Shown in pieces: positions 1,892 through 16,040 of a stretch of DNA of 18,657 bases. Source of the DNA: a virus. The position numbers were made by a program, and so were the translations under genes. The stretch's first letter is position 1; every line of letters starts with the position of its first letter. The stretch lies in UHGV virus genome UHGV-0107297. One strand, given 5' to 3'. The notes beneath the pieces are model-generated. The model was given only the letters and a program-made list of their open reading frames with translations, did not search any database and was not told the origin of the DNA.

Positions 1892-1898
1892 GCATTAT

Positions 1899-1950: not shown

Positions 1951-2373
1951 ATGAAACACGTATTACTTCCTCTGGTTGCTGCCTCCGCGTTACTTATCAC
2001 TGCATGTCAATCTCGTCCTATTCCTGTCTCTGAGGCAAAGCCAGCACCGCAGACCAGAATATTCAAATACCAATCTCCGGCGGCATCGACGCTGGTGGTT
2101 ATGAGAGATAAAAGCATGGTGGGCGCCGGTTGCGACGCATCGATCTTCATCAATGGCGAAACCGTTGCAAAACTGGAAACAGGTGAAAAAGTCACTTTTC
2201 ATCTGGATGCCGGAGAATGGATTGTTGGCGCCTCACTCGAAGACGCTGGGCTGTGCGCACTGAATCCTGCTCGTCAGGAACGCGAGACGATTACCAAAGC
2301 TGGCGAGACGAAAGTCTTCCGGGTGTTCACCAGTAATGCTGGTGACATCGATATCTTACCAACGACACTGTGA
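1951..2373 (+). CDS. putative lipoprotein, 140 aa
   Basis: N-terminus MKHVLLPLVAASALLITAC reads as signal peptide with lipobox LITA-C; in-frame alternative ATG at 1915. Confidence 0.6.
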   Translation: MKHVLLPLVAASALLITACQSRPIPVSEAKPAPQTRIFKYQSPAASTLVVMRDKSMVGAGCDASIFINGETVAKLETGEKVTFHLDAGEWIVGASLEDAGLCALNPARQERETITKAGETKVFRVFTSNAGDIDILPTTL

Positions 2374-2377
2374 CGAT

Positions 2378-2905
2378 ATGACGAATATTACTGACATCAC
2401 CTACGGGATTCCTGCAGAAGTCTGGCCGCGCGATTACACCAACGTGGAGAAAGCGCTGATGTTCTGGCGCAAGTCTCTTATTCCTGTAAGGGTCACGATG
2501 GAAGATGGTCAGGTGTTCTGCATGTATGTTCAGGGTCTCATGTCGTCACGCAACAAGGTCGACCTTTGCCCTGCCCCGTTCGACAAAGATAATCGTATAA
2601 GGCTCCCACTTGAGCGAATCAGCACGATTGAATCAGGTGTGACAGAAGGCATTGCACACGACTTCACGGGTCGGACAACGATACACCCAGACTATGTGGA
2701 CAATCGGCCATCTCGCCGTGATTTCTTCAAAATTTGTCGCCAGGCCCATGAGATGCAGAAGTCTATAAGGGTCTACATGGCGGATGGCCGTGAAATTGAG
2801 GGGGTGTCTTCAGGCGTTGACGCTTGTCAGGTCACACTCAACATGGGGGACGGTAGGAAGACAGTCGCCATGTTCGATTGGGTCGAACGGATTTTACCGT
2901 TTTAA
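2378..2905 (+). CDS. hypothetical 175-aa protein with internal duplication; weak Rof/YaeO-like (Rho-binding) resemblance
   Basis: Likely start ATG 2378 (MTNITD) 4 nt after lipoprotein stop; two repeats each with (I/V)RVxMxDG(Q/R)...ERI pattern; Rof link is from memory and unverified. Confidence 0.5.
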   Translation: MTNITDITYGIPAEVWPRDYTNVEKALMFWRKSLIPVRVTMEDGQVFCMYVQGLMSSRNKVDLCPAPFDKDNRIRLPLERISTIESGVTEGIAHDFTGRTTIHPDYVDNRPSRRDFFKICRQAHEMQKSIRVYMADGREIEGVSSGVDACQVTLNMGDGRKTVAMFDWVERILPF

Positions 2906-2920
2906 ATCTATAAGGGTAAT

Positions 2921-2950
2921 AACCGGCTAAGTCCGGTTATTATTTTATTC
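2921..2950 (+). terminator. rho-independent terminator
   Basis: AACCGG-CTAAGT-CCGGTT hairpin at 2921-2938 followed by ATTATTTTATT. Confidence 0.6.
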
Positions 2951-3121
2951 GTCACTTCCCGTTATATTTATTTCCCACAAACTCGATTCCAATTTAAATA
3001 TATAAGGGTGATTGGCTGAATAGAGAATTTATTTAGGCAACACCTTCGAGAAAACGCGTTTTATTTCTAAGATTTTGATTTTTATTGGAGAAAAATTTTT
3101 TCGTTCCCGCATAAAAAACTC

Positions 3122-3150
3122 TTGATTTTAATTTCTGTATATCGATAATT
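3122..3150 (+). promoter_or_regulatory. sigma70-like promoter candidate
   Basis: TTGATT - 17 bp - ATAATT inside a very AT-rich intergenic region (2951-3227) upstream of CDS 3228. Confidence 0.4.
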
Positions 3151-3227
3151 AGTCACATCGAAAGCGAACACGCTAACGATAAACAAACAACAAATTAAGT
3201 TATCAATATTACATAAGGATTAACATC

Positions 3228-3878
3228 ATGTCTAACGTTACCATTTCTAAAAAATCCATTATCGACGCTGCTGTGGTTATCGCTAATGAGTTACAAGTTG
3301 CAGCCAACAACGCTACTCAGACTTATAACAATCATTATAAAAATGGTACACACACAAAAGCGGATAAAGCTAACATGCTTGCAGCGTCTACCAAACTAGC
3401 ATACTTCACCAACAACGTTTTAAACGCTGTTAATGATGAGAAATTAGCTGGTATCTTTTACTACGCGATTAAAGCAAGTAAACAAGCACCTGAAGCGTTT
3501 TTCCGTGAAGCTATGACCAATAGCTATTCACTCGAAAAACTGGTTTATCTGGTTAAATCTATTAAAGCTGGAAAGTGTGTTTATTCCGTCGCTGATATGT
3601 CCGGATCTCGTGTATTCGCTTTAATCGATATGATTAACGACGAGATCGACACGTTCACCAATGGCGCTGTTTTCGATTTAATGAATGAAGCGAAAAAAGC
3701 CAACGAAATAAAATTAGACGCAGGATACACTCAAGCCAACCAGCTTATCAATCTTTGCGAACGTCTGGGACTGGTCGAAAAAATCAAAGGAATGGGTGCA
3801 GCGAAAAACGGATCACAGCAATATCGCTTCGTTAAAAATGATTTTTATAACTATCTGGCTGATGCTTTCAAAGCGTAA
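3228..3878 (+). CDS. hypothetical 216-aa protein, AT-rich gene
   Basis: SD AAGGA before ATG; low-GC composition unlike flanking genes; no motif recognised. Confidence 0.7.
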   Translation: MSNVTISKKSIIDAAVVIANELQVAANNATQTYNNHYKNGTHTKADKANMLAASTKLAYFTNNVLNAVNDEKLAGIFYYAIKASKQAPEAFFREAMTNSYSLEKLVYLVKSIKAGKCVYSVADMSGSRVFALIDMINDEIDTFTNGAVFDLMNEAKKANEIKLDAGYTQANQLINLCERLGLVEKIKGMGAAKNGSQQYRFVKNDFYNYLADAFKA

Positions 3879-3890
3879 TTAGATGGATAT

Positions 3891-3915
3891 AGCGCCCACT
3901 ATGGGCGCTAGTTTT
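3891..3915 (+). terminator. rho-independent terminator, copy 1 of a 19-bp palindrome
   Basis: AGCGCCCACTATGGGCGCT at 3891-3909 followed by AGTTTT. Confidence 0.55.
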
Positions 3916-3928
3916 AAGGAGCTTAATC

Positions 3929-4159
3929 ATGTTTGTTCTTATCGCTGGCGTTAACGTCCATAATGAATATTATGTTAATCGCATCGCTGGGATCGCTGGG
4001 ATCGCTGGGCGCGCAGTCGAGTTTATAAATGAAACAACGCGCAAAATTGACTTATTGAACGACCAGGAGCGAAAAAAAGCAGACGTGAATGACGCTGATA
4101 TATTTTTAATGTTAAAAGCGTTTGTAGAAATGGGATTCAAAATTAGTTTACACAAATAA
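3929..4159 (+). CDS. hypothetical 76-aa protein containing IAG-IAG-IAG
   Basis: SD AAGGAG 7 nt before ATG; contains 3 tandem 9-bp repeats. Confidence 0.55.
   Translation: MFVLIAGVNVHNEYYVNRIAGIAGIAGRAVEFINETTRKIDLLNDQERKKADVNDADIFLMLKAFVEMGFKISLHK
3983..4009 (+). repeat. 3 x 9-bp perfect tandem repeat ATCGCTGGG
   Basis: Direct reading: atcgctggg atcgctggg atcgctggg, in-frame inside CDS 3929-4159. Confidence 0.9.
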
Positions 4160-4165
4160 AATCGA

Positions 4166-4190
4166 GCGCCCACTATGGGCGCTTTTTTCG
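4166..4190 (+). terminator. rho-independent terminator, copy 2 of the same 19-bp palindrome
   Basis: AGCGCCCACTATGGGCGCT at 4166-4184 followed by TTTTTTC. Confidence 0.7.
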
Positions 4191-4589
4191 TTTCCAATAC
4201 TCCCACCATAACGCGCCATCATTAGCGCGTTTTTTATTGTCTTTAACTCGCTCCAACAACATAAAAATAAGCACCAAAATAACGCCATAGACGCGCTTTT
4301 ATATCCTTGTTAGTACATACACATTACTTAACACATTAACGCGCTTAAAACGCGTTATATTGCGCTATAGAGTATGGTTAATCATTGGCTTTTAGTCTTG
4401 CTATGTGATCCGCGTTTATTTGTCGGCGCGGATCGGCTCTTTGTGTTGTTTTGTATCCGCTCGCATATGATTGCCACGTTGGGCAACGTGTACGCGCTTA
4501 CAGTGATTTACCCACGGATTCACATAATCACATAGCGAAAGCTATCTGGATGGCCCAGGGGCTGAAACCCCCACCAGCGCTACCCCAGC

Positions 4590-4780
4590 GCCGCTACGCA
4601 ATTTCTGGCGCGATTCCGGGTTTCTCCCGCTCAGTTTTCTACATAAAGGCGACCCCCGCCGTTTCCCGAAAAAATCTTGGCCGTTTCCCGTCGGCTCATG
4701 AATGCGTTCCTCGCCGTTTCTGAAAATTTCCCTGCGGCAGCTGGTGGCTATAGAGAAAGGGCCGTTTCTGGCCCTCTTCT
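4590..4780. repeat. structured non-coding region with GCCGTTTCCCG / GCCGTTTCTG direct repeats (region A)
   Basis: Copies at about 4659, 4680, 4713 and 4761, plus gggtttctcccg at about 4611; shares CGTTTC(CC)TGAAAA...TTTCCCTGCGGC with 8693-8731. Confidence 0.5.
4758..4775 (-). terminator. terminator of CDS 4784-5266
   Basis: Minus strand reads AGGGCC-AGAAAC-GGCCCT then TTCTCTAT immediately after the stop. Confidence 0.45.
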
Positions 4781-4783
4781 CAG

Positions 4784-5266
4784 TTACACGCCATCAAGGA
4801 TGTGGATGCGGTTGCTTGCGTATACATTCAGCATAAAGTTAGCGCAAAACAGTTTCCATGTGTCAACGCCAGCGGCATACGTAATGTTTTTGCATTTTAT
4901 TGCATTGTTGGCGATCCGCATCCCCTGCGATACTGCTTCATCGTCGGAAAATTTGAACGACGATTGAGTTTTAATCCAGACAGAAATCTGCGTAGCGAAC
5001 TCAATCAGCTTGGACTGGCAGAATCGCCCGGAGCGTACCGGGAAGACAAATGTTCCGAAGCCAGAATTTGCGACATACGCTTTCTCAATTACCCGTGAGT
5101 AACGACGTTTGCAAATGATGTCGCGTGCAATAATGCATTTTTCTTGTGCTGACAGTTCTACCGTCTCATTGTCGCGCCATGCACCAAGTACTCGTTTTTC
5201 AATATCAGAGAACGTTACAGCGATATTGCCATGTGCGGGTGCGTTTACAGTAGCGATAAAATTCAT
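4784..5266 (-). CDS. hypothetical 160-aa protein
   Basis: SD AAGGAA 8 nt before ATG at 5266; box copy upstream. Confidence 0.65.
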   Translation of the reverse strand: MNFIATVNAPAHGNIAVTFSDIEKRVLGAWRDNETVELSAQEKCIIARDIICKRRYSRVIEKAYVANSGFGTFVFPVRSGRFCQSKLIEFATQISVWIKTQSSFKFSDDEAVSQGMRIANNAIKCKNITYAAGVDTWKLFCANFMLNVYASNRIHILDGV

Positions 5267-5282
5267 GATTAATTCCTTATCG

Positions 5283-5320
5283 TAAATAACAAATTGTTTT
5301 CTTGTTGGTGTTAATTATCG
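5283..5320 (-). promoter_or_regulatory. conserved box copy 1 (AAACAAATTGTTTTCTTGTTGGTGTTAATTATCG)
   Basis: Palindromic core AACAAATTGTT; minus-strand TTGACG-17-TAATTA overlaps it; about 20 nt before the SD of CDS 4784-5266. Confidence 0.5.
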
Positions 5321-5441
5321 TTGTACGAATAAGGCGTCAAAGTGGAAAGTTGCGGTAGCCGGACGGGAACAGGTGGGTTTGTCGGTTGCCTGGAGGTAAG
5401 AGGTTGGTGTTTTTAGCCTGCGGGAAACAGGATGGTCATTT

Positions 5442-5465
5442 AAGGCCACCAGCATTGGTGGCCTT
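5442..5465. terminator. GC hairpin AAGGCCACCA-GCAT-TGGTGGCCTT 3' of CDS 5471-5758
   Basis: Perfect 10-bp stem; no clean U-tract on either strand, so terminator or stabilising stem-loop. Confidence 0.35.
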
Positions 5466-5470
5466 ACTCT

Positions 5471-5758
5471 TTAGTGGAGCAGACCGATGTCGATGGTATC
5501 CCCTGAATCATCCACACGGATCATCAGCATGGCGAAGGCGTTTAGTGGATAGCTTGCGTGCCATTCAGGGAAGCGGTCATCTCGCATGAAGTCGGCAATG
5601 TCGTAAACGCAGCCCTCAAAGTGGAAGAATCGCGTGCTTACCTGCTCGTCATATTCCACATGATCCATTTCTTGCTGTTCTGTTTCCGGCAAGTCCAGCC
5701 ATGATTCAAGGAATACATTTTGTGCTTTAGGGGTAATGGTGAAATCAGTCATGAGCAT
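5471..5758 (-). CDS. hypothetical acidic 95-aa protein
   Basis: Track ORF 5471-5884 trimmed to in-frame ATG at 5758 (GTGAGGAT-ATG); D/E-rich; box copy 2 upstream. Confidence 0.55.
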   Translation of the reverse strand: MLMTDFTITPKAQNVFLESWLDLPETEQQEMDHVEYDEQVSTRFFHFEGCVYDIADFMRDDRFPEWHASYPLNAFAMLMIRVDDSGDTIDIGLLH

Positions 5759-5770
5759 ATCCTCACTGCG

Positions 5771-5804
5771 TAAACATATTGTTTTCTTGTTGGTGTAATT
5801 ATCG
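5771..5804 (-). promoter_or_regulatory. conserved box copy 2 (TAAACATATTGTTTTCTTGTTGGTGTAATTATCG)
   Basis: Near-identical to copy 1; abuts the SD of CDS 5471-5758. Confidence 0.5.
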
Positions 5805-5912
5805 CAGTGTAGATAAGGCATAAAAGAAGTTAATACAGGCTGAATACACAAGAAAGGTTCTGGAAGTTGATAGCCAGGTTTCAAACTAACCTTCGGTTAT
5901 TAAAAGTCATTT

Positions 5913-5936
5913 AAGACCACCAATGCTGGTGGCCTT
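5913..5936 (-). terminator. hairpin AAGACCACCA-ATGC-TGGTGGCCTT, relative of the 5442 hairpin
   Basis: 3' of the small ORF 5942-6085; minus strand continues AAATGACTTTTAAT. Confidence 0.4.
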
Positions 5937-5941
5937 AATAA

Positions 5942-6085
5942 TTATCGCCCGATTACGCTAAGGATCTTTTCCTCAACTGATTTGTTGTTGCGACTAAACT
6001 GCCTTGCGTATCTTATGACAGAAGAGGCGTTTCGCTTTCTGACCATCTCGGCTCTCTCCTTCAGGCGTTTCTTGAAATCGCCCAT
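5942..6085 (-). CDS. unannotated small basic ORF, 47 aa (MGDFKKRLKERAEMVRKRNASSVIRYARQFSRNNKSVEEKILSVIGR)
   Basis: ATG 2 nt after stop of CDS 6088-6462 (TAA-AT-ATG), GGTGG SD-like upstream, hairpin directly downstream; below the track length cutoff. Confidence 0.3.
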   Translation of the reverse strand: MGDFKKRLKERAEMVRKRNASSVIRYARQFSRNNKSVEEKILSVIGR

Positions 6086-6087
6086 AT

Positions 6088-6462
6088 TTACCACCAGGCA
6101 CGGAACGTCAGTCTGTTATTGTGAAAGTCGTGGTTCCTGATCAGGTCTTCCACAAGTTTTTTCAGCTTATCCACGTCATGCCAGTAACCTTCATCGTACT
6201 CCTGACTGCCGAAGAAAAAACCTTCCCGGGTAGGTAAGTACACTTCGCAATTACTTTCGTTTATGTGCATCAAATGAGCCTTCAGAAAACAAATGTCATT
6301 CATCGTTAATTCTAAAAGCTCACAATTTTCGACTTCACCTACGTTGCGCTCCATCCACCCAACGAGCGCATTGAACTTACGGAAGTAAGCAACCTGCTTT
6401 CTGGATGCCTCGTTATTCAGATCGTTTTTAGGCTGCGTCTCGATATAGATATCAAGTCCCAT
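6088..6462 (-). CDS. hypothetical acidic 124-aa protein
   Basis: Track ORF begins with GTG at 6504 inside the box; in-frame ATG at 6462 has SD TAAGGATA. Confidence 0.6.
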   Translation of the reverse strand: MGLDIYIETQPKNDLNNEASRKQVAYFRKFNALVGWMERNVGEVENCELLELTMNDICFLKAHLMHINESNCEVYLPTREGFFFGSQEYDEGYWHDVDKLKKLVEDLIRNHDFHNNRLTFRAWW

Positions 6463-6513
6463 GATGGTATCCTTATTAAGTTGCTTCAGTGAAATCATTT
6501 TCACAAATCAGAT

Positions 6514-6540
6514 AAGGCAGAAAACAAATTGTTATCGGGA
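6514..6540. promoter_or_regulatory. conserved box copy 3, inverted orientation (AAGGCAGAAAACAAATTGTTATCGGG)
   Basis: Same palindromic core, flank on the other side; lies between the 6541-6570 terminator and CDS 6088-6462. Confidence 0.45.
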
Positions 6541-6570
6541 ATAAGAAAATGGCGCGGTTTACGCGCCATT
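6541..6570 (-). terminator. rho-independent terminator of CDS 6580-6975
   Basis: Minus strand: AATGGCGCG-TAAAC-CGCGCCATT then TTCTTATT. Confidence 0.6.
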
Positions 6571-6579
6571 CAAAGAGGA

Positions 6580-6975
6580 TTAAGCGAATACGCTTTCAGG
6601 GACAATGGTGTCGATCTTTTCGCCGGAGATTATTCGCAGACCGTGTTGTCCCATCCAGGTACTATTGGTATTTAAACTCGATGTATAAACCGCATCGACC
6701 TTTTTCATCAAATTTTCAAACAACGTCTGATCCGCGCCACGGAAATGAGTTTCCAGTTTTATCAGTAAAGGGTCAGAAGCATTACTGATGCTTTGGTAAC
6801 GCACCGAATATTTTCCCTTTGTGGCCTCGCCGGTGCGAGTTAAGGTACTGGTGTGAACTTCTTCGCCGGAGGCATTATCGCGTAGCACAATTGTAATTTT
6901 TGCAACTTTGTCTCCATTTTCCGTCTCTGATGCATAATACATATCCAGGGTCAGATTTTCGCGTTTAACGGTCAT
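6580..6975 (-). CDS. hypothetical 131-aa protein
   Basis: Strong SD ACTAAGGAGAGTGAA before ATG at 6975. Confidence 0.7.
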   Translation of the reverse strand: MTVKRENLTLDMYYASETENGDKVAKITIVLRDNASGEEVHTSTLTRTGEATKGKYSVRYQSISNASDPLLIKLETHFRGADQTLFENLMKKVDAVYTSSLNTNSTWMGQHGLRIISGEKIDTIVPESVFA

Positions 6976-7030
6976 TTCACTCTCCTTAGTGTTTAATTTT
7001 TAATTTTATTATCATAAGTAAGTACTTACA

Positions 7031-7062
7031 ATACAAAAAAGCCCCGAAGGATTGGCGGGGCT
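7031..7062 (-). terminator. rho-independent terminator of CDS 7097-7408
   Basis: Minus strand: AGCCCCGCC-AATCC-TTCGGGGCT then TTTTTTGTATTG. Confidence 0.7.
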
Positions 7063-7096
7063 GTCGTACATTCGACTAACTACTGCTTGCACATGT

Positions 7097-7408
7097 TTAA
7101 GCTACCGCCTGAACAGACGCTCGTTGGATCTCTTGTTGGGCGACACGGTTGGCTTCCATCAGCGCCAGTTCAAGCTGGTCCTCTGGCCACATTTTCTGGA
7201 CCGACATCCACCCTCTTCCACGCTGGCGACGAACTACCATCACATAGCGCGTAAAATTGCCCGCGTCGAAGGTAATGGCTTTTTCACGAAACAGACGGAT
7301 AGAAGTCCCATTCGCTACGATATCCAGCAATGTGAGATGCCCCATTAAGGTTGGTTTTTCTTTTCTCTCCTGACCTTCAGCAAGACCCAGCACCAATGAA
7401 GTATTCAT
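7097..7408 (-). CDS. hypothetical 103-aa protein
   Basis: Track ORF trimmed to in-frame ATG at 7408 (MNTSLVLG) with SD GGAG; box copy 4 upstream. Confidence 0.55.
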   Translation of the reverse strand: MNTSLVLGLAEGQERKEKPTLMGHLTLLDIVANGTSIRLFREKAITFDAGNFTRYVMVVRRQRGRGWMSVQKMWPEDQLELALMEANRVAQQEIQRASVQAVA

Positions 7409-7418
7409 CACCACTCCG

Positions 7419-7455
7419 TAAACAAATTGTTTTCTCAATGGCGTAAATAATACCA
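7419..7455 (-). promoter_or_regulatory. conserved box copy 4, subfamily b (AAACAAATTGTTTTCTCAATGGCGTAAATAATACC)
   Basis: Same core with a different distal flank, shared with copy 5. Confidence 0.5.
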
Positions 7456-7536
7456 GTGTAAAAACGGCTACAAAGCATATTGCTCAGGCACATGAATTAT
7501 CTAAAGGTGGTTCTTCCCTGCGGCTACAGAGAAGTT

Positions 7537-7559
7537 AAGCCAGCAGGCGGTGCTGGCTT
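7537..7559 (-). terminator. hairpin AAGCCAGCA-GGCGG-TGCTGGCTT 3' of CDS 7569-7898
   Basis: 9-bp stem; weak U-tract. Confidence 0.3.
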
Positions 7560-7568
7560 TGGTTGGGT

Positions 7569-7898
7569 TTACGCGAATACATCAAGGAACTCCTGAACGT
7601 CCCAATGCTGGACAAGGTGAAGATAGAGCTTAGAAATCACGTCATTCTCGCTATCGCATGTGAAGTAGTACTTCTGGCTGCGGTTGTATGTATCCACACA
7701 AAATTCGCTCATATCCATAAAGTCAGCATCATCACCCAGGTCGCAAATAATCAAAGCAGGAGCATCATCACGAGTCATCAGCTCAAGCACCCAGCGCGAA
7801 TTGATCAGCGTGGAAGACCAACCTTCTAACTCATAAAACTGGTCAAACTCTTTTTGAGTCATTTTCTTGATTTGGTTGATGTCGATATTTGCAAACAT
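7569..7898 (-). CDS. hypothetical acidic 109-aa protein
   Basis: Track ORF trimmed to in-frame ATG at 7898 (MFANIDIN) with SD AAGGA; D-rich. Confidence 0.55.
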   Translation of the reverse strand: MFANIDINQIKKMTQKEFDQFYELEGWSSTLINSRWVLELMTRDDAPALIICDLGDDADFMDMSEFCVDTYNRSQKYYFTCDSENDVISKLYLHLVQHWDVQEFLDVFA

Positions 7899-7909
7899 AA
7901 CGCAATCCT

Positions 7910-7945
7910 TAAACATGTTGTTTTCTGAATTGCGTAAACAATACC
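7910..7945 (-). promoter_or_regulatory. conserved box copy 5, subfamily b (AAACATGTTGTTTTCTGAATTGCGTAAACAATACC)
   Basis: Aligns with copy 4 over about 35 bp. Confidence 0.5.
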
Positions 7946-8009
7946 AGTAAGAAAACGGCCACAAAGTATATCGTTACGGTGCTGCGCTGCCCCGGAGGTT
8001 AATAGCGAC

Positions 8010-8030
8010 AAAAGCCACCGTGCTGGTGGC
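8010..8030 (-). terminator. rho-independent terminator of CDS 8038-8256
   Basis: Minus strand: GCCACCAGCACGGTGGC then TTTTGTCGC. Confidence 0.5.
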
Positions 8031-8037
8031 CTCACTC

Positions 8038-8256
8038 TTAATCTTCGTCGCCCGGGAACTCGCTGTGTACCGCGTCCACCAGCTCCCGCTTTTCATCTTC
8101 ACTCAGCAGGTGCCAGATATCCTTCCCTTTGGGCGATTCCCCTTCTGCCGGGACGAACGACCACAACTTGCGGTACAACTCCGGCCCCACTGCATCCAGA
8201 CACTCAGCCAGGGAATCCACGCCCCACACCTCAACCGTCACAGGCATCTTAATCAT
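8038..8256 (-). CDS. hypothetical acidic 72-aa protein
   Basis: ATG at 8256 preceded by GTGAGGATGAAGAG; D/E-rich. Confidence 0.55.
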   Translation of the reverse strand: MIKMPVTVEVWGVDSLAECLDAVGPELYRKLWSFVPAEGESPKGKDIWHLLSEDEKRELVDAVHSEFPGDED

Positions 8257-8286
8257 CTCTTCATCCTCACTTCGTTTATATAACGT

Positions 8287-8322
8287 CTAAACATGTTGTT
8301 TACTTGTTGGTGTTATTATCGC
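8287..8322 (-). promoter_or_regulatory. conserved box copy 6 (AAACATGTTGTTTACTTGTTGGTGTTATTATCG)
   Basis: Subfamily a; upstream of CDS 8038-8256. Confidence 0.5.
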
Positions 8323-8589
8323 AATAAGACAAAGGCGGAAAAGGATTTTATGTCGTGAAAGCCAGGCTGGGCAGTGAATATCCGGGAACGACACGGGAGC
8401 CAGTATTTACGATATTCTGCTCTACGCGCGCCACGGGGCTGGTGGGCAGAATATCCTTCTCCCCGAAAACCTACTGAAATAGCTTGAGACCCAATGATGG
8501 TCTGGCAGAATGGAGTCCAGTAGCTGCACGAGAGGGAATGACACTCCCCCGCGATTTTCAGGCGAGTGAAGAGTAAGGCGCACTCCCGA

Positions 8590-8770
8590 AGATTTCCCGC
8601 ACCGCTCCCGCAGTCGTCCCTCACTCTGTACCGGGATGTACCCGTTTCCCGACCGGCAGCCAGCCTTTCCCCGGTTCGTATAGCGGGATTCCCACCGTTT
8701 CCCTGAAAACCTCAAGCCTTTTCCCTGCGGCGACGCTCCCGTTCCTGAAAAGGGACATAGCTTTCCCGGA
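8590..8770. repeat. cluster of about 7 YTTTCCC(G) repeats (region B)
   Basis: gatttcccgc 8591, cccgtttcccgacc 8641, cctttccccgg 8665, ccgtttccctg 8695, ccttttccctgcgg 8718, cccgttcctg 8738, gctttcccgg 8760; related to region A. Confidence 0.5.
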
Positions 8771-8954
8771 TGGCCCGAAGGCTGACCGAAGGGGTGGAAA
8801 GGGACGTTACGGGGGATGAAAACTATGGCTTGAATTTATGCGGAAAAAGTGGCGATACCCCTCCTTCCCTTCCCACTTATACCTCCCACGAATTTTCTCT
8901 CTTATGTGGGCATAAACCTTCCCTCTGATAACGCTCTATACGGCGAGTATTCCT

Positions 8955-9480
8955 TTGGGTGAAATGGGTGGTTTGTTCTTTCTACCGGCATATGTGGTTT
9001 CGTTCTTCTTGAGGTGGTTCTTCTCTGTGTTTTCGTCTGGGTTGTTCTCGTCGTTTTGGTGAGTGTTCTTCTCCGTGTATGGAGTAATGGCAGGTGCGCT
9101 TTTCTCTTCGTTTACGTGAAATGATGAAAGTGTGGGTAATGGCAGTAGGGCGCTTTAGTTGTTCTCCGCATATGAAGTAATGGCGTTCCCTGCTATTCAG
9201 GAATTTGCGCTCTCTTTCGGGGTAATGGTGGGTAAACGAGATTGTGACGGCTCCTGTTCTTGTCTGGGTTTGTCCGGGGTTTCGTTCTGGCTGTTCTTCT
9301 CCGTGTATTGGGTAATGACGTATCGGGGTTTGCGCGTGCGAACCGCGTTCTCGGTTGCCTGGGAATATTAGGTGGGTGGTCTGTAGCCTGGGGCAATGAG
9401 GTGGGTCTTTTCGGTAGTCTGACAGGAAGAGGTGGGTGTTTCCGGGATTGTGGGTAATGGCGTCTCTGGGTTTCCTGTGG
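8955..9480. repeat. degenerate G/T-rich repeat array, no convincing ORF
   Basis: About 22-bp GKTKKTTCTTCTC units at 8960-9080; GTAATGG at 9084, 9136, 9177, 9222, 9312 (GTAATGA) and 9455; a 26-bp block GTTCTTCTCCGTGTATNGRGTAATGRC at 9065 and 9293; strong G+T strand bias. Confidence 0.6.
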
Positions 9481-9546
9481 GGGTTGTTAACTTGTTTTCT
9501 TATGCCTGAAAACAACTTGTTTAGATGCCCAATATAACGCAACGGG

Positions 9547-9571
9547 AGCGCTTCTGAGCGCTTCTGTTTTT
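9547..9571 (+). terminator. plus-strand rho-independent terminator at the right end of the repeat array
   Basis: AGCGC-TTCTGA-GCGCT hairpin followed by TCTGTTTTTGAG. Confidence 0.45.
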
Positions 9572-9714
9572 GAGTGATATCACGAGTCGTTTTTGACGTT
9601 TTGGTCGCAGGGAGATGGATTCTGGTGCGCAGGATTTTGGGTATAAGAGATGGCTTGCGAAAACGTCAACTTTTTAGACCAAATCAGAGGAAAGCGTTGA
9701 CTTTTCGTTGACGT

Positions 9715-9748
9715 GTTATTTATTTGTTTTCTTATGGGTGTAATTGGC
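9715..9748 (-). promoter_or_regulatory. degenerate conserved-box copy (TTATTTATTTGTTTTCTTATGGGTGTAATTGG), no gene downstream
   Basis: Matches the subfamily-a flank with only half of the palindrome; adjacent GTTGAC/GTCAAC repeats at 9664-9712. Confidence 0.3.
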
Positions 9749-9865
9749 TTAAATGCCTTGTCACCCCTGGGCTGGGGTAGGTTGGAGAGGTGGGGGAAGT
9801 GGCGATCAACGGACTCTTATAGAAATCCTCAATTTGTGACCGCCAATGTCAACGAGTTGCAGCCG

Positions 9866-10492
9866 TTAGTCGTTTAGGTAGTAATTAGGCACGCGAACGT
9901 AGAAATTCTCGTCACCGATCATTTCGATAGTGATGTTAATGTCATTACCGTTATCCAGTGTAGCCGTGGCTTTGTAGAACTTGTCCGTCACTTTGTCCTG
10001 AATTGTTACCTTCATGCATTTAGATGCTTCTGAACCGTTATTTTCTTTCAGAATAGTGGTAACTATAGGGCAAGCAGCTTCTTCAAGCGCTGAATCTGCG
10101 TTGAAGCTATACACGAAAAATGATGCAGCAAAGGCAACAATCCATACGATAAACAGCAGTCGGTTACTTCCAAGAACCGTCGCTCGTTTCCAGAGATACA
10201 CAGGGGGGATAAAGAACCCACATAAGAATGATGGTGGCTCATAGCCTGCCTCAGTCAAATTCATGCGATCGGCGACCAGCAGTCCAAGCCCAATGACGAA
10301 CGAAATCACCATAACGTAATTGTCGTACTCAGCAGGGGGGACGCTGACAACAAACGGCAGTATTGCTATAAGCCACGCGTAGAGGTTTTTAACTGATTTT
10401 TTTTCTAAAGTATCGATTTCCATTACATCCATTCCATTTTGAAATACAAGCGGGTATATGATATCAACTTTCCAGGTAATTATTCCCGCCAT
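9866..10492 (-). CDS. predicted integral membrane protein, 208 aa, with about 80-aa soluble C-terminal domain
   Basis: ATG at 10492 is 15 nt after the upstream stop; hydrophobic segments LYAWLIAILPFVVSV, YVMVISFVIGLGLLV, LLFIVWIVAFAASFFVY. Confidence 0.65.
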   Translation of the reverse strand: MAGIITWKVDIIYPLVFQNGMDVMEIDTLEKKSVKNLYAWLIAILPFVVSVPPAEYDNYVMVISFVIGLGLLVADRMNLTEAGYEPPSFLCGFFIPPVYLWKRATVLGSNRLLFIVWIVAFAASFFVYSFNADSALEEAACPIVTTILKENNGSEASKCMKVTIQDKVTDKFYKATATLDNGNDINITIEMIGDENFYVRVPNYYLND

Positions 10493-10507
10493 TGCTAGTA
10501 GTTATAT

Positions 10508-10828
10508 CTACCAATCCCATGCTGGCATTCCATCCACCAGCTCCGCATCACAGTCAAATTGTACCGAATCATACCCGGCATCCCGTATGGCCTGTATGTT
10601 AGAGATCGCCTCTTGGGAAATGCCGTAATCACGCAATTCTTCCTTCCAGTCATTCCCTCGCATTCCAGCACGAACAATCCATCCATACTGTGTACCGTGT
10701 ACCCAATTCAACCCGCGATCAGTAAGTGGGTCGAAGCAGGCAATGGGTAGCCGTTCTGAATCCGCTGCCGTGACGTGGGCGGTGCTGATCACCGCCGTCT
10801 TATACGATTCGGTGATTTTCAGCATCAT
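10508..10828 (-). CDS. hypothetical 106-aa protein
   Basis: Strong SD CCAAAGGAGAAGGC before ATG at 10828; start overlaps upstream stop (ATGA). Confidence 0.7.
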   Translation of the reverse strand: MMLKITESYKTAVISTAHVTAADSERLPIACFDPLTDRGLNWVHGTQYGWIVRAGMRGNDWKEELRDYGISQEAISNIQAIRDAGYDSVQFDCDAELVDGMPAWDW

Positions 10829-11061
10829 GCCTTCTCCTTTGGAAACAGAATGTTGGCCGTGTCAGAAATGACATCCCAATTCACGCCGACGCTGGCATCA
10901 TGGCACTCTTTGATTTTTCGCAAAACCTGAACGCACTGTTCGTCAGTCAGGTCTGGTCGCCCTTCACCTACATCTTCCTTGTGCCACATCACCATCAGCA
11001 GCGGCTCGTCTTCTGGGTAGTTCTCCAGCTTTTCGATAATTTCTTTCGCGGTTCCGAACAT
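10825..11061 (-). CDS. hypothetical acidic 78-aa protein
   Basis: Track start at 11079 is a TTG inside the box; in-frame ATG at 11061 has SD AAGGAG. Confidence 0.6.
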   Translation of the reverse strand: MFGTAKEIIEKLENYPEDEPLLMVMWHKEDVGEGRPDLTDEQCVQVLRKIKECHDASVGVNWDVISDTANILFPKEKA

Positions 11062-11072
11062 GATTAACTCCT

Positions 11073-11106
11073 TAAACAATTTGTTTTCTTATTGGTATTA
11101 TTATCT
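11073..11106 (-). promoter_or_regulatory. conserved box copy 7 (AAACAATTTGTTTTCTTATTGGTATTATTATCTC)
   Basis: Palindrome abuts the SD of CDS 10825-11061. Confidence 0.5.
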
Positions 11107-11117
11107 CAAATAACGAA

Positions 11118-11140
11118 AGGCAGAAAACAAGATGTTTAAG
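11118..11140. promoter_or_regulatory. conserved box copy 8, inverted (GGCAGAAAACAAGATGTTTAAGGG)
   Basis: Back-to-back with copy 7; same GGCAGAAAACAA flank as copy 3. Confidence 0.4.
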
Positions 11141-11146
11141 GGATGA

Positions 11147-11413
11147 CTAGGTGAGTTTGAAGTCGTCTATGTCATCAACAAACTCCATATACCTGGCTTC
11201 GACACTCGACAATCTGATCAGATACGCAAGCCCGTAACTTAGTGAAGTGGGTTGCTCCAGCACAAATTCGAACCCATCCTCATGCGTTTTACCAAGCCAG
11301 AACCCCCCACCGTATTCTTTTTCACGTTGGAAGAAAACGAACTGTCCGGGTATTAGGTGCTTGAGTGCTTCGCCCCTATAGACGATCACATATTTAGAAT
11401 TCTTGCTGCCCAT
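11147..11413 (-). CDS. hypothetical 88-aa protein
   Basis: Track ORF begins with TTG at 11470; in-frame ATG at 11413 has SD GCGAGGCGAGCA; start uncertain. Confidence 0.5.
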   Translation of the reverse strand: MGSKNSKYVIVYRGEALKHLIPGQFVFFQREKEYGGGFWLGKTHEDGFEFVLEQPTSLSYGLAYLIRLSSVEARYMEFVDDIDDFKLT

Positions 11414-11486
11414 TGCTCGCCTCGCAATACTGCACATATAAACAGTGGTATTTATTACGGTACTGGTCAACTTTACGGGTTAATTG

Positions 11487-11518
11487 AATAACAAGATGGT
11501 GAAAACAATTTGTTTTGG
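11487..11518 (+). promoter_or_regulatory. conserved box copy 9 (AACAAGATGGTGAAAACAATTTGTTTTGGCG)
   Basis: Core GAAAACAATTTGTTTT; about 85 nt upstream of plus-strand CDS 11601. Confidence 0.45.
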
Positions 11519-11600
11519 CGCTTGAGATTTTGCAAATCGCACCTACATGGAAAACGGCAATTTTTGAAACCTGATTTGACCCATGTGAAAGGAGGAAACG

Positions 11601-11804
11601 ATGAAGACCTATGATCGCAACCGTAACACTATCACTACCGGCAGCCGAGTGATGGTGGCAACGAATGGTGCAACGGGAGTCATCAAGGAAATCTGCGGAG
11701 AAGGCAAATCAGAAGAACAATTACGCCGCTCTGACTGCGTGTCTATCGAAGGTGTGGAAGATCTGTTCTGCCCAATGGATTTAGTTCGCCTGGGATTCCA
11801 ATAA
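11601..11804 (+). CDS. hypothetical 67-aa protein
   Basis: Strong SD GAAAGGAGGAAACG before ATG; no motif recognised. Confidence 0.65.
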   Translation: MKTYDRNRNTITTGSRVMVATNGATGVIKEICGEGKSEEQLRRSDCVSIEGVEDLFCPMDLVRLGFQ

Positions 11805-11805
11805 T

Positions 11806-11852
11806 TACACCACTAATTAAACAAATTGTTTAAGGCCACAAATAATGGCCTT
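11806..11852. promoter_or_regulatory. conserved box copy 10 fused to a GC hairpin
   Basis: ATAATTACACCACTAATTAAACAAATTGTTT followed directly by AAGGCCA-CAAATAA-TGGCCTT (11832-11852), between convergent genes. Confidence 0.4.
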
Positions 11853-11859
11853 ATCTGGC

Positions 11860-12558
11860 TTACGGAACAGCAGTAATCAGATCGCAAATGCCTGTTTTAG
11901 TTAAATCACTATTTAGCTTCTGAAAATTGGCATTCAGCATTGCGGTATGTATTCGATTCTCAAGTTCAAAGAAGAGATCGATCTTGCCCTCTTTGGCTGC
12001 CACCTTCTTCCAAATATTCACCTGGTCATCTGCGATACGACTTGCGCAGGTGAACAAGAACGAACTCCCTCTGGGAAGGGATGTCGTGCTGTAGTATTCA
12101 CCGTCAACTTCAATATACTTAGCTCGGAATGACTCCAGAGTTAGCTTTTTACCGCTCTCAGCCTGCTTTGTGTCTGCCTTGCTTGTCTTTTCCTGAACTT
12201 CAGGCTGTTTCTGCACAGGCTTTGGTGTCTCATTGACCACCGCAGTGCTGGCCGAACCATCCAAACTCTTGAGGCCATTAATTTGGATTAGATAAGCCAA
12301 CTCCAGAGTCTTATCACCAGTGAGTTTTCCACGCATACTTACCCATTGACGCTGAACCGTCTTTAAGGCGTCTGCGTCCCCCGGGTTTGCTTTGAGTGCG
12401 TTGGAATAGGTAGAGCTAAGTTGTTCGTCTAATTTTGACAGGCGTTCGTTATCGCAGATTTTGTGTTCGATTTCTGCCGAAGCCTTTTGGCAGTCAAAGC
12501 TGGCTGCAAATACAGCCGGCGATGCCACCAACAATGATGCCAGTAGGATATTTTTCAT
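11860..12558 (-). CDS. secreted protein with DUF1311 / LprI-like (lysozyme-inhibitor family) N-terminal domain, 232 aa
   Basis: Track start is GTG at 12564; in-frame ATG at 12558 has SD GGAG; signal peptide MKNILLASLLVASPAVFA; spaced Cys pattern FDCQKASAEIEHKICDN...QRQWV typical of DUF1311 as recalled. Confidence 0.65.
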   Translation of the reverse strand: MKNILLASLLVASPAVFAASFDCQKASAEIEHKICDNERLSKLDEQLSSTYSNALKANPGDADALKTVQRQWVSMRGKLTGDKTLELAYLIQINGLKSLDGSASTAVVNETPKPVQKQPEVQEKTSKADTKQAESGKKLTLESFRAKYIEVDGEYYSTTSLPRGSSFLFTCASRIADDQVNIWKKVAAKEGKIDLFFELENRIHTAMLNANFQKLNSDLTKTGICDLITAVP

Positions 12559-12596
12559 ATTCACTCCATAAATATAAAAGCGCCTGACTATAGCAC

Positions 12597-12812
12597 TTAA
12601 CCGATTGCTTCTCTCATCTGATTGTGAAGCTCTTTCAGCCCATTACGTACCGCGTTCATGATACGTTCCAGGTATTGGTATCTGGGGTTTGGCACCGTTG
12701 GCCAACCGGCATACCACGGATCGTCACCAAACAGACTCAGCAGTTCGTTACCGACACCGAAACAGCAGCAACTTTCTTTTACGTCATCAGCGTTTTCTGC
12801 CTCGTCCCACAT
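12597..12812 (-). CDS. hypothetical 71-aa protein (weak)
   Basis: ATG ORF with weak SD; frame is open a further 87 nt upstream without a start. Confidence 0.3.
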   Translation of the reverse strand: MWDEAENADDVKESCCCFGVGNELLSLFGDDPWYAGWPTVPNPRYQYLERIMNAVRNGLKELHNQMREAIG

Positions 12813-12858
12813 ATTGCGGGCCTGCTCTGCGTCGATTTCTCTCTCTCCCTGCGCAACT

Positions 12859-13167
12859 TTATGATTTCGGATTTGACGAAAAGCAGGTTTGCGTCGTTGT
12901 CATCGTCGACCGTACTGAAGTGGCACACTGAATTTGGCCGTCTGTAATGGGCAGATCCGGCAACTGTTTAAAAACTTCCATCTGCTCATGGATACGCAGA
13001 AACCACCTTGCCAGCTCCATCTGCTCACCGCGGGTGAGGGGATTATTCAGCGGGGACTTAACAAAAGCGGAGACTCGCTCGACAATAGGCGGCGATCTTC
13101 GCCAGACGGTCACACATTTCGTTCTCGCGATGACCTGCATGGCCTTTAACCCACTTCCAGCGGACAT
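12859..13167 (-). CDS. hypothetical 102-aa ORF overlapping the 3' end of the rnhA homolog (weak)
   Basis: ATG at 13167 lies inside the RNase H frame (13058-13513) in another frame; may be spurious. Confidence 0.25.
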
Positions 13168-13513
13168 TATGACGACTGGCGGCCGCGTCGAGACGTTTCC
13201 AGAGATCCACGTTTTTGACTGGCTTCTTCTCAGACGTGATCCATCCGTTACGCTTCCAGCCTTTCATCCAGAGCGTCATGCCGTTTTTAAGATACTGGCT
13301 GTCGGAATGCAGGATCACGTTGCAGGGGTACTTCAGACGCTCCAGCGCAATCAGGGCGCCCATCATCTCCATCCGATTGTTGGTCGTGCTGTGGAAGCCC
13401 TCAGAAAGCTCGCGCTCTTCGCCTCGATACTGGAGAACGATGCCGTAACCGCCCGGCCCGCCCGGATTTTTGAGGCAGGAGCCATCACTGAATACTTTTA
13501 CGGTTTTGAGCTG
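13058..13513 (-). pseudogene. rnhA: RNase HI homolog with start codon replaced by CAG
   Basis: Translation [24 protein letters not shown]...[16 protein letters not shown]...HSDSQYL...[14 protein letters not shown]...[14 protein letters not shown] matches RNase HI along its length; codon at 13511-13513 is CAG where ATG is expected; no ATG/GTG/TTG in frame between the upstream TAA and internal Met at 13372. Confidence 0.6.
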
Positions 13514-13683
13514 GGGATTGAACTCGACTACGGGGGTTTTGAAGTTGGTACGGGATTGCTGGTGGGTTTGGTATTCGAACTGGCTCGGGCCAGTGCAATC
13601 GACAGCGAACTTTGTCAGCGCTTCATGCAGCTGGCAGCGGCTCGGTGGGCGTTACGTTTTACGATGCTTATTATGTGTAGCCC

Positions 13684-13712
13684 AATTAAAAAGACCACTA
13701 TATATAGTGGTC
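13684..13712 (-). terminator. rho-independent terminator of CDS 13752-14153
   Basis: Perfect 22-bp palindrome AGACCACTATATATAGTGGTCT followed on the minus strand by TTTTTAATTGG. Confidence 0.65.
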
Positions 13713-13751
13713 TCATGGTAATAGATAAGCACTTACCTATCAATTATCAAC

Positions 13752-14153
13752 TTATAAAATTCCAGCAAGAACATCGCGAACCTGACGGAATTGATCAGTT
13801 TGCATACCGGTGTAAATCGATGCGACAGCGTCCGCAAGGTGCTCGTTTTTATTCACCAGCACTTCCTTGCCCGATTGCTTCCGGCGCAACCACGGGGCGT
13901 TTGGCTGCTTCTGCGTAGCCCACTGAATGATCTCTTCTTTCGACGTAGTCAGCTTATTCCCGACATAGTACTTAATCTCGTTTGGCGTGACCTGTATCAG
14001 TGGCTTATCCACACACGCCAGTACGCCAAGACAACCACCATAAGAAACCATCGCTCTAGCAGATTGACTGCCTACTGGCAGTTCACAGAACACTAAATGA
14101 ACTTGGTCAATCAGTGGCTTAATACCACGCCAAATCTCGTTCAACCGCCGCAT
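13752..14153 (-). CDS. hypothetical 133-aa protein
   Basis: ATG ORF with terminator downstream; no motif assigned confidently. Confidence 0.5.
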   Translation of the reverse strand: MRRLNEIWRGIKPLIDQVHLVFCELPVGSQSARAMVSYGGCLGVLACVDKPLIQVTPNEIKYYVGNKLTTSKEEIIQWATQKQPNAPWLRRKQSGKEVLVNKNEHLADAVASIYTGMQTDQFRQVRDVLAGIL

Positions 14154-15664: not shown

Positions 15665-15702
15665 GTCTCCAGCGCTTGCGGTTACTGGCTTGAGAAGGGG
15701 TT

Positions 15703-15810
15703 ACTATCCACTATAGGGAGCAAAATAACCACTGTAGAGAGCATAATAACCGCTATGAAGAGCAAAACAACCTCTCTGGAGAGTAGTCGGTATCCACTGT
15801 AGTGAGTAGG
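15703..15810. repeat. iteron set A, 5 copies at 24-bp spacing
   Basis: ATCCACTATAGGGAGCA, AACCACTGTAGAGAGCA, AACCGCTATGAAGAGCA, AACCTCTCTGGAGAGTAG, ATCCACTGTAGTGAGTAG. Confidence 0.7.
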
Positions 15811-15967
15811 AGACAATGTTTTAACTGGATAACTCCGAGCCTGTTTTTCTGCGGCAGATGGCTGATATTCTTGGAAATATTGTAAATTTTGCGTTGCGGC
15901 GTGTTTATTTCGATCACACATTATCCCCAGAAGGGGAGTGATGCCTGATTTTGTAATTATCTGATTT

Positions 15968-16040
15968 TTATACACAGGCCCGATCCAGTAATTCAGATCC
16001 CTGTTAGAACCAAAGAGAACCACAAAGACCCAAAGAGATC
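15968..16040. promoter_or_regulatory. origin module copy B: DnaA-box-like site plus three GATC sites
   Basis: TTATACACA at 15968-15976 followed by the same GGCCCGATCC junction as copy A; GATC at 15982, 15996, 16037. Confidence 0.55.

Follow-up and report, generated by a model that had tools for sequence, protein, structure and literature searches.

The viral genome UHGV-0107297 is represented here by a stretch of 18,657 nucleotides (the window), which is part of a phage-plasmid of the SSU5/pHCM2/pMT1 type and in which a 17-bp palindromic sequence, here called the box, recurs between small genes. The assignment follows from the matches of window positions 5000-12500 to 774 plasmids of the PLSDB database, which are about 110 kb in size and nearly all non-mobilizable, as well as to Salmonella phage SSU5 and Escherichia phage Cyrano. 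The matching plasmids come from Klebsiella, Escherichia, Enterobacter, Yersinia (pMT1) and Salmonella, the top matches being E. coli plasmids of the CP057419 type (98.9%) and NZ_CP110979 (95.5%). According to annotated relatives, a helicase gene and the gene of a FljA-family "transcriptional regulator" (2378-2905, plus strand) lie to the left of an array of small minus-strand genes with no assigned function (4784-12558), and repA with its iterons lies to the right. The array is a mosaic, its query coverage across the 774 plasmids running from 100% to 1%, and it contains 11 boxes within 5285-11833, ahead of small genes that mostly have no Pfam match (Table 1). No Rfam match was found anywhere in the window.

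The box reads GAAAACAAnTTGTTTTC and extends the core AAACAAnTTGTTT recognized in an initial annotation of the window. It is laid out as the dyad GAAAACA-AnT-TGTTTTC, which is of odd length with a single central base and has half-site centres 10 bp apart. Allowing up to two mismatches, AAACAANTTGTTT has 11 matches in the window as compared to 1.75 expected, a number not reached in any of 200 shuffles. Scored with a symmetrised position weight matrix (PWM), the 11 sites range from 19.7 to 25.8 and the next-best position of the window scores 9.6; over 13 sources (the window together with 12 related loci) the distribution has two modes, with a background of up to 11, sites from 14 to 25 and nothing in between. 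The four copies named in the initial annotation all exist, with 17-bp cores that start at 6520, 11072, 11123 and 11817 and thus lie slightly off from where it had placed them, and seven further boxes start at 5285, 5770, 7418, 7909, 8287, 9508 and 11501. The same box sequence is present in elements from Escherichia, Salmonella, Klebsiella, Enterobacter, Citrobacter and Yersinia. We did not find the box sequences in the literature searched, where the motif and its regulon appear to be undescribed; operators within promoter modules and regulatory repeats that serve as recombination junctions are, as such, familiar.

The box is distinct from the promoter and occupies two fixed places in a portable, predicted promoter module. 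In the order of transcription this module consists of the terminator hairpin of the previous gene, a distal box, TGCCTT.. (17 nt), (TGn)GATAAT, a spacer of 11-12 nt with the consensus ACACCAACAA, a proximal box, the Shine-Dalgarno (SD) sequence and the ATG. The proximal box hence lies 11-12 nt downstream of a -10 element, often TGnGATAAT, and just ahead of the ribosome-binding site, and the distal box lies on the -35 side, ending 17 nt upstream of the same -10 element. In the window a proximal box is present at six promoters (5285, 5770, 7418, 7909, 8287 and 11072). The -10 elements are either extended (TGnGATAAT) or reduced to nnnAAT at the fixed position, and the -35 elements are weak. In each of 59 non-identical proximal modules the box follows the last T of the -10 hexamer at exactly 11 nt, and the same spacing is found in 22 of 28 modules taken to represent unrelated gene families downstream, where 28 is the number given by clustering, some spurious or misoriented calls included, and the number of unrelated protein families directly behind a box is roughly 20. 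The distance from box to start codon on the other hand varies between 8 and 41 nt, and the box is therefore tied to the promoter and not to the gene. Where boxes are paired their spacing is quantised: among 361 boxes in 111 SSU5-like loci, neighbours less than 120 bp apart are spaced by 51 bp in 29 of 35 cases, by 25 bp in five and by 105 bp in one. If transcription is assumed to start 7 nt past the -10 element, the proximal box would cover about +6 to +22 and the distal box about -46 to -30. The AAACA and TGTTT arms are invariant across the 59 proximal and 18 distal instances, every core base being kept in at least 55 of the 59 proximal ones, a set from which selection by PWM excludes covarying variants. 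At proximal and distal boxes alike the promoter-facing, inner half-site is GAAAAC and the outer half-site TTAAAC; the asymmetry of the box therefore mirrors around the promoter and does not run along the transcript.

Table 1. Boxes, predicted promoter elements and hairpins of the array (window positions)
Position	Strand	Feature	Details
5285..5301	-	Proximal box, promoter of gene 4784-5266	PWM 19.7; outer half-site degenerate; start codon 18 nt off; GATAAT 12 nt upstream
5435..5473	.	Terminator hairpin, left boundary of cassette 5467-5905	Stem 5441-5466; repeats I3, D20
5770..5786	-	Proximal box, promoter of gene 5471-5752	PWM 23.7; module repeat family D6; extended -10 TGCGATAAT, hexamer 5798-5803, 11-nt spacer
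5906..5944	.	Hairpin, right boundary of cassette 5467-5905	Stem 5911-5938; near-identical to 5435-5473
6520..6536	-	Distal (-35-side) box, sole box of promoter for gene 6088-6462	-10 GAAAAT 6497-6502, 17 nt away
6547..6571	-	Terminator hairpin of gene 6580-6975	10 pairs, then T run; adjoins 6520 box upstream
7418..7434	-	Proximal box, promoter of gene 7097-7408	PWM 25.8; in 69-nt module 7412-7480
7909..7925	-	Proximal box, promoter of gene 7569-7898	In module 7903-7971; Cyrano indel crossover point
8287..8303	-	Proximal box, promoter of gene 8038-8256	-10 GATAAT 8315-8320; second Cyrano indel crossover partner
9494..9524	.	Orphan composite	Half-site TTGTTTTC 9494-9501, 6 nt, full box 9508-9524; PWM 23.4
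11072..11088	-	Proximal box, promoter of operon 11061 back to 9866	PWM 24.2; start codon 10 nt away; -10 TGAGATAAT, hexamer GATAAT 11100-11105
11123..11139	-	Distal box of 11072 promoter	51 bp centre to centre from 11072-11088
11501..11517	.	Box in divergent region, gene 11147-11413 (-) / ydfZ (+)	PWM 24.1; left junction of ydfZ cassette
11806..11833	+	-10-like AATAAT 11806-11811, 11-nt spacer, box 11817-11833	No gene downstream
11832..11852	.	Bidirectional terminator hairpin, AAGGCCA..TGGCCTT	Overlaps last 2 nt of 11817 box

Several box copies had been described as hard to reconcile with a simple promoter. This objection falls away, in that every odd copy fits an architecture in which operator-like sites take a distal or a proximal position at a promoter. 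The copy at 6520, said to be in the opposite orientation, is real and does adjoin the terminator 6547-6571, but the box itself is palindromic and only its flanks have an orientation; the copy is explained as a distal box, and its SSU5 counterpart is the distal partner in a 51-bp pair (locus L002, 3933/3984). The supposed divergent pair about 12 bp apart does consist of two boxes, those at 11072 and 11123, but they are separated by 34 bp between their edges and flank one and the same -10 element, whose region had been taken into the first copy (11073-11106). The operon behind them encodes a DUF1380-like protein, a DUF5983 protein and a 208-aa open reading frame (ORF). The box at 11817 is indeed fused to the hairpin 11832-11852, which lies between the convergent ydfZ (11601-11804, plus strand) and LprI-like (11860-12558, minus strand) genes. 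This hairpin and those at 7040-7062, 7537-7559 and 8014-8030 were read off the sequence, and the hairpins 5441-5466, 5911-5938 and 6547-6571 were called by a terminator scan.

We consider it probable that the box is a DNA operator carried in promoter/terminator cassettes of SSU5-like phage-plasmids and that these cassettes recombine through short homology. Most likely the 17-bp palindrome is the binding site of a repressor, as predicted from its symmetry and position: it abuts or overlaps the core promoter at a fixed distance, the proximal position being the classic roadblock position and the distal one overlapping the -35 side. A dimeric or tetrameric regulator encoded by the phage-plasmid would bind the dyad, block open-complex formation or promoter escape when bound to the proximal box, and occlude the -35 side when bound to the distal box. 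Paired boxes, being 51 bp or five helical turns apart, would present the protein on the same face of the DNA at either flank of the polymerase site. The suggestion of the initial annotation that the box is a protein-binding palindrome thus gains support from the 10-bp distance between its arms, its fixed place around the -10 element and the quantised 51-bp spacing.

The proximal box would, however, also be transcribed, which raises the question of whether it acts at the RNA level, either as the target of a FljA-family protein with tandem Sm domains that represses translation or destabilises the mRNA, or as a nut-like antitermination site across the cassette terminators. FljA reportedly acts in this way on the fliC mRNA, whose 5'-untranslated region it binds. 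A gene of this family (Flag1_repress, Pfam E-value 1.9e-95) is the one that adjoins the array at 2378-2905, its product is predicted to consist of two Sm/Hfq-like barrels without a helix-turn-helix (HTH) motif (model with a pLDDT of 84), and it is transcribed in the Cyrano lysogen (18 counts in LB, log2 7-8 in other conditions). Moreover, many proximal boxes end 8-12 nt from the start codon and abut the SD sequence, and the 5' half of the box is, together with the leader, A-rich in ARN-like triplets, the 3' half being U-rich. Such a function is nevertheless unlikely. It is the -10 element and not the start codon from which the box keeps its distance, and distal boxes are located upstream of the -10 element, the one at 6520 even following a terminator and hence lying outside the regulated mRNA. 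Paired boxes hold a DNA-helical spacing, the sequence of both arms is invariant, as in a site that a protein contacts in duplex DNA, and the RNA hairpin formed by the box amounts to only -0.7 kcal/mol. In the upstream region and leader of E. coli K-12 fliC there is no AAACA-N3-TGTTT, and the low expression of box genes in the lysogen (see below) fits transcriptional better than purely translational control. It is because of the invariant arms, the anchoring to the -10 element, the distal copies outside the transcript, the five-turn spacing and the negligible RNA hairpin that we favour an operator in duplex DNA.

In Cyrano, of which 106.7 of 108.4 kb were scanned, about 20 boxes are present, nearly all of them intergenic (one lies inside the MetRS gene; L003, 14830), and they precede about 17 units genome-wide. 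Boxes directly precede terS (two boxes with a spacing of 25 bp), parA, the DnaB-like helicase gene, cobT, CYRAN_58, nrdB, tciA, CYRAN_87, an Eae-like gene and most genes of the accessory array. In RNA-seq data of an LF82 lysogen, box-bearing units have 5-25 normalised counts at a floor of 5 (PMC9928086, S1 table). The same work lists 14 genes as expressed in the lysogen, among them a putative repressor, toxin-antitoxin pairs, CYRAN_43, CYRAN_99, CYRAN_117 and others (PMC9928086), and only two of the 14, both in the parA operon, belong to a box-bearing unit. Nearly all box-bearing units of Cyrano are silent in the lysogen. A repressor acting at the box would silence about 20 transcription units while the element is a plasmid-prophage, comprising the accessory array as well as core operons such as those of terS, the helicase, nrdB, tciA and cobT.

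Lysogen silence would also result if the box were a site of positive control, at which an activator or modified polymerase of the phage, made after infection or induction, switches on weak promoters devoid of a -35 element, and if this factor were simply absent from the lysogen. The poor -35 elements and the many -10 elements that are merely nnnAAT are what such a mechanism would call for, no other part of the module is as well conserved as the box when unrelated genes are compared, the distal box, centred at about -38 for the assumed start site, comes close to the position of a class II activator, and the units concerned include the late terS operon. Yet most promoters only have the proximal box, which at about +14 is in a repressor or roadblock position that would be unusual for an activator, several of them have strong extended TGnGATAAT elements that need neither a -35 element nor an activator, and the box-bearing parA operon is expressed in the lysogen. 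All in all we give activation little chance of being the function of the box.

A host protein appears even less suited to the role. The in-phase AAAA and TTTT tracts of the palindrome would bend DNA and might attract a chromosomal nucleoid or transcription protein, and the identity of the box across elements of six enterobacterial genera would be in keeping with a conserved host factor. In a scan of viral contigs, however, multi-box arrays were found only on SSU5-like contigs of about 110 kb, all other matches being single chance ones in low-GC contigs, and we regard a host-factor site as very improbable. To our knowledge, the box matches none of the consensus sites of Fis, IHF, CRP, LexA, PurR, TyrR, DeoR and PhoP, and sigma-28 promoters do not fit it either. 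Many of the SSU5-like contigs carry cassettes that are unrelated to those of the window behind the same modules.

A number of observations weigh against an operator bound by a repressor. The parA operon has a box and still reaches 50-89 counts in the lysogen, and repression would therefore be either not absolute or autoregulatory. No box-binding protein was identified among the candidates examined, and the regulator encoded next to the array has a predicted fold of the RNA-binding type. A simple sigma-70 consensus scan of the window did not call the module promoters, which were missed because of their weak -35 elements, and the promoter assignment therefore rests on the extended -10 element and on geometry. 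Tandem boxes that are 25 bp apart, as found before terS and in locus L032, do not fit the same-face phasing. The counts overstate independence, as orthologues and paralogues account for many of the instances. Finally, three of the crossovers described below share only about 17-36 bp, which is short for ordinary homologous recombination.

The initial annotation had also proposed that boxes and hairpins mark cassette junctions. When junctions were mapped against 10 loci and inspected at the nucleotide level, cassette content was found to differ among relatives, and in seven indel events the crossover falls on the box, on another part of the module or on a terminator hairpin. In Cyrano, which lacks window positions 7927-8287 with gene 8038-8256, the crossover is inside the box: the Cyrano sequence corresponds to the 7909 module through the first half of the box and to the 8287 module from the second half on, and the box is the sole sequence shared at the crossover. 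SSU5 lacks 7480-7895 (gene 7569-7898) by a crossover in the 69-nt repeat formed by the modules 7412-7480 and 7903-7971, which are 83% identical (repeat family D14), and it lacks 5826-6510 (gene 6088-6462) by a crossover at the -35-side element GATAAGGCA. The latter event is the reason why 6520 is a lone distal box in the window, its equivalent in SSU5 being paired with the 3933 box. Plasmid p09EL50 lacks 5467-5905 and keeps one hairpin, the crossover being between hairpins 5441-5466 and 5911-5938, and S. Anatum plasmid pSAN1 has an extra gene inserted at hairpin 5441-5466 (at about 5465).

The two remaining events at modules concern the 11817 box, a junction that bounds the ydfZ cassette on its right and the LprI cassette on its left. 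In SSU5 the LprI-100-099 cassette has a box plus hairpin (about 36 bp) on both sides, and Citrobacter and S. Senftenberg plasmids without the cassette have only a single box plus hairpin in the interval from ydfZ to the following gene; the 11817 box and the hairpin 11832-11852 of the window correspond to the left copy. Likewise, a Klebsiella plasmid without ydfZ has just one box with its hairpin in place of the window's series of box (11501), ydfZ, box (11817) and hairpin. ydfZ is the only plus-strand cassette, and the orphan AATAAT with its 11-nt spacer (11806-11816) is a promoter remnant at the ydfZ junction. Not all breakpoints are at modules, as two other events lie elsewhere, namely a replacement at 9859/10508, which coincides with gene boundaries within an operon, and a deletion of 1.4 kb at 12916/12928, which cuts genes. 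Through the latter the window has, compared to SSU5, lost the right-hand box plus hairpin junction of the LprI cassette, and ORF 12597-12812 is a remnant of a SSU5_100-like gene.

Since the crossover points vary across the module, short-homology recombination is likelier than site-specific cutting. The recurring regulatory sequence of 17-70 bp and the similar hairpins at each cassette would provide the short homologies for insertion, deletion and swapping of cassettes, and the odd copies at 6520, 11123 and 11817 would be products of the module layout and of such exchanges. The Cyrano annotation includes RecA/UvsX-, UvsY-, UvsW- and gp32-like recombination proteins and an exonuclease.

Could the palindrome instead be the site at which a dedicated recombinase cuts, in the manner of integron attC or hix/gix sites, its link with promoters being secondary? 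Three junctions fall within the 17-bp box or the box plus hairpin between otherwise unrelated flanks, ydfZ as the sole inverted cassette is flanked by two palindromic boxes, and an integrase gene (CYRAN_44) is present in the element. The half-sites GAAAAC and GTAAAC presumably resemble hix/gix half-sites, a likeness that we take as a lead only. The other junctions, however, are at GATAAGGCA, in the 69-nt repeat or in terminator hairpins and thus have no single crossover point in common. Serine invertases use a 2-bp core and tyrosine recombinases a spacer of 6-8 bp, and an odd-length dyad with a 3-bp centre fits the sites of neither. In addition, the box precedes conserved core operons that are not cassettes and keeps a fixed position relative to the -10 element, and no Pfam recombinase was detected in the 20 window ORFs scanned (50-13918). 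A dedicated recombination site is thus improbable. A Hin/Gin-type invertase site, which is 26 bp in length with two inverted 12-bp half-sites around the 2-bp core, was ruled out on account of the odd-length dyad with its single central base.

With integron attC arrays the array shares small and mostly same-strand genes, imperfect palindromes between them, presence/absence polymorphism and junctions at the palindromes. It differs in that each cassette has its own promoter, consisting of the -10/box module, and its own terminator, that the palindrome measures 17 bp and not 57-141 bp, that crossover positions vary and that the box also occurs outside the array. IntI, attI and Pc are missing from the window (Pfam, 20 ORFs), the integrase of Cyrano being encoded about 50 kb away. 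An integron attC array was accordingly ruled out on its defining features, that is IntI/attI/Pc, promoterless cassettes and attC size. A more far-reaching idea, to which we attach only a small probability, is that the protein at the box or a dedicated enzyme actively promotes exchange, which would make the array a self-regulated, integron-like gene-capture platform; in a variant of this idea the binder is a partner of ParA. If this were true, each cassette would bring its own repressible promoter, and the platform would shuttle small accessory, possibly anti-defence genes among about 800 Enterobacterales plasmids, and for the ParA-partner variant the boxes would be dispersed centromere/operator sites like those of KorB or omega.

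Which protein would then bind the operator? The FljA-like neighbour was rejected as a classical DNA-binding repressor in view of its predicted tandem Sm/Hfq-like fold without HTH and of the lack of a box in the E. coli fliC leader, and judging from its model the protein is unlikely to bind double-stranded DNA. It is a core gene product of SSU5-like phage-plasmids, and its predicted fold, which fits RNA binding, makes mRNAs of host flagellin or of the phage conceivable targets of repression. The putative master repressor CYRAN_45 was rejected as well, as its divergent control region contains GGTAAG..CTTACC palindromes and no box. Our leading candidate, a guess that is put forward as a lead and not as a finding, is a 119-aa protein encoded after parA, outside the window. 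In Cyrano this is CYRAN_29 (L004, 29975-30334), which is annotated as a RelE/ParE toxin but occupies the parB position behind a 222-aa ParA, and whose sequence looks like that of a ribbon-helix-helix (RHH) protein of the ParG type (…KSRTMSLEDEYFELL…TRSDVIRAAIFHL…) with a disordered basic N-terminal tail. Its operon promoter has a proximal box, and the operon is expressed in the lysogen. The protein is encoded by 797 plasmids, in 736 of which it is at least 90% identical, and except for Yersinia its host distribution equals that of the array. The putative DNA-contact segments are invariant even in homologues with 49% identity, and a Klebsiella plasmid with a 52%-identical homologue keeps the same box, which is consistent with the proposal but not discriminating. 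An AlphaFold2 monomer model of CYRAN_29 is weak (pLDDT 64), showing just the expected helices and being too weak for a fold search. Upstream of Cyrano parA there is no obvious centromere repeat array and only the box. The neighbouring proteins of 216 and 76 amino acids have no PDB or Pfam relatives, the Cyrano homologue of the former being at the RNA-seq floor in the lysogen, and Pfam scans of other lysogen-expressed or regulatory Cyrano proteins were uninformative.

Dispersed operators of this kind are well known from global repressors, such as C1 of P1, KorA and KorB of RK2 and omega of pSM19035, of which KorB and omega serve in partition as well as in global repression. As in these regulons, one short operator is found at many promoters, that of the par operon included, in an arrangement that coordinates replication, partition and accessory or lytic genes, and KorB and omega parallel the guessed RHH-like binder linked to parA. 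The sequences, however, are unrelated, the P1 operator being asymmetric (ATTGCTCTAATAAATTT), the KorB site reading TTTAGCSGCTAAA and omega binding heptad arrays, and the operator described here is at rigid positions of +14 and -38.

As far as the layout is concerned, the closest relatives are the promoter-early stem-loops (PeSLs) of T4-type phages, repeats made up of a sigma-70 promoter and a stem-loop that serves as terminator (Arbiol et al. 2010, PMC2839356; Comeau et al. 2014, PMC4122927). PeSLs are located between a stop codon and the next SD sequence and ATG and are concentrated in hyperplastic regions of small ORFans, and their motifs hold indel and replacement junctions between close relatives, which have been attributed to homologous recombination (PMC2839356, PMC4122927). 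The window has the same layout and the same kind of junctions. It differs in that its host element is a temperate phage-plasmid of siphovirus type and not a lytic T4-like myovirus, that its predicted promoters have an extended -10 element and a weak -35 element, that its modules carry one or two 17-bp palindromic boxes, which are absent from the description of PeSLs, and that the box also precedes core operons. There is likewise some resemblance to morons, which are said to be promoter-gene-terminator insertions in the genomes of temperate phages, in that small genes with their own promoter and terminator lie among conserved genes and are variably present in relatives. Classical morons are expressed from the repressed prophage, whereas most of the cassettes described here do not rise above the RNA-seq floor in the Cyrano lysogen, and they share an operator.

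Some further features of these elements deserve mention. Proximal boxes occur as tandem pairs with a 25-bp spacing at about position 2165 of L032 and upstream of terS in Cyrano (L004, 55-96), and behind the terS pair there is a terminator-like hairpin (GAGCGCATGGACGCGCTC and a T-rich run), which suggests tighter or attenuated control of the late operon. The promoter of gene 6580-6975 is without a box; it consists of TTGTAA-17-TAAAAT (7031-7003) with TATGATAAT nearby, the only half-site-like sequence in 6976-7096 being TTAAACA, and the Cyrano homologue of this gene has about 17 counts in the lysogen, roughly three times the floor. The gene may escape the box regulon.

The region 8300-9860 comprises about 1.5 kb with no credible ORF and is 92-94% conserved with SSU5, Enterobacter and Salmonella relatives, which is above the flanking genes. 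It holds about seven dispersed GGGTAATGGC-like repeats (GGTAATGG has 6 matches in the window as compared to 0.37 expected), a 24-nt tandem repeat (9016-9078) and three repeats of about 30 nt (9348-9438). The latter recur as a family at 5349-5437, where three tandem repeats of about 30 nt (TTGTCGGTTGCCTGGAGGTAAGAGGTTGGTG-like) lie just upstream of the promoter of gene 4784-5266. The orphan composite 9494-9524 is part of this non-coding stretch, has no ORF on either side and is conserved in six relatives; composites of a half-site and a box with an 8-nt gap recur on other SSU5-like contigs. The region may be a cis-acting site such as a centromere, an origin or an incompatibility determinant. Farther right, dense iterons of about 20 bp (TATCCACTGTAGTGAGT) occur in both orientations at 15700-17900 around a 351-aa ORF (16250-17305), which fits the RepA replicon of SSU5-like elements.

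Phage-plasmids of the SSU5 type include pHCM2 of S. Typhi, pMT1 of Y. pestis and many elements of Klebsiella and E. coli, some of them with carbapenemases. They are common, as 774-797 PLSDB records were matched, and their gene regulation is essentially uncharted. One 17-bp operator-like site at about 20 promoters provides an experimental handle on the regulator, with a regulon that is already defined, and the operator model predicts genes that fire upon infection or induction. The modules would at the same time explain the turnover of the accessory region, in that any small gene placed behind a module would immediately come under the common control and have sequence ready for recombination on its flanks. 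This matters for how accessory genes, possibly anti-defence ones, spread and for attempts to engineer such elements.

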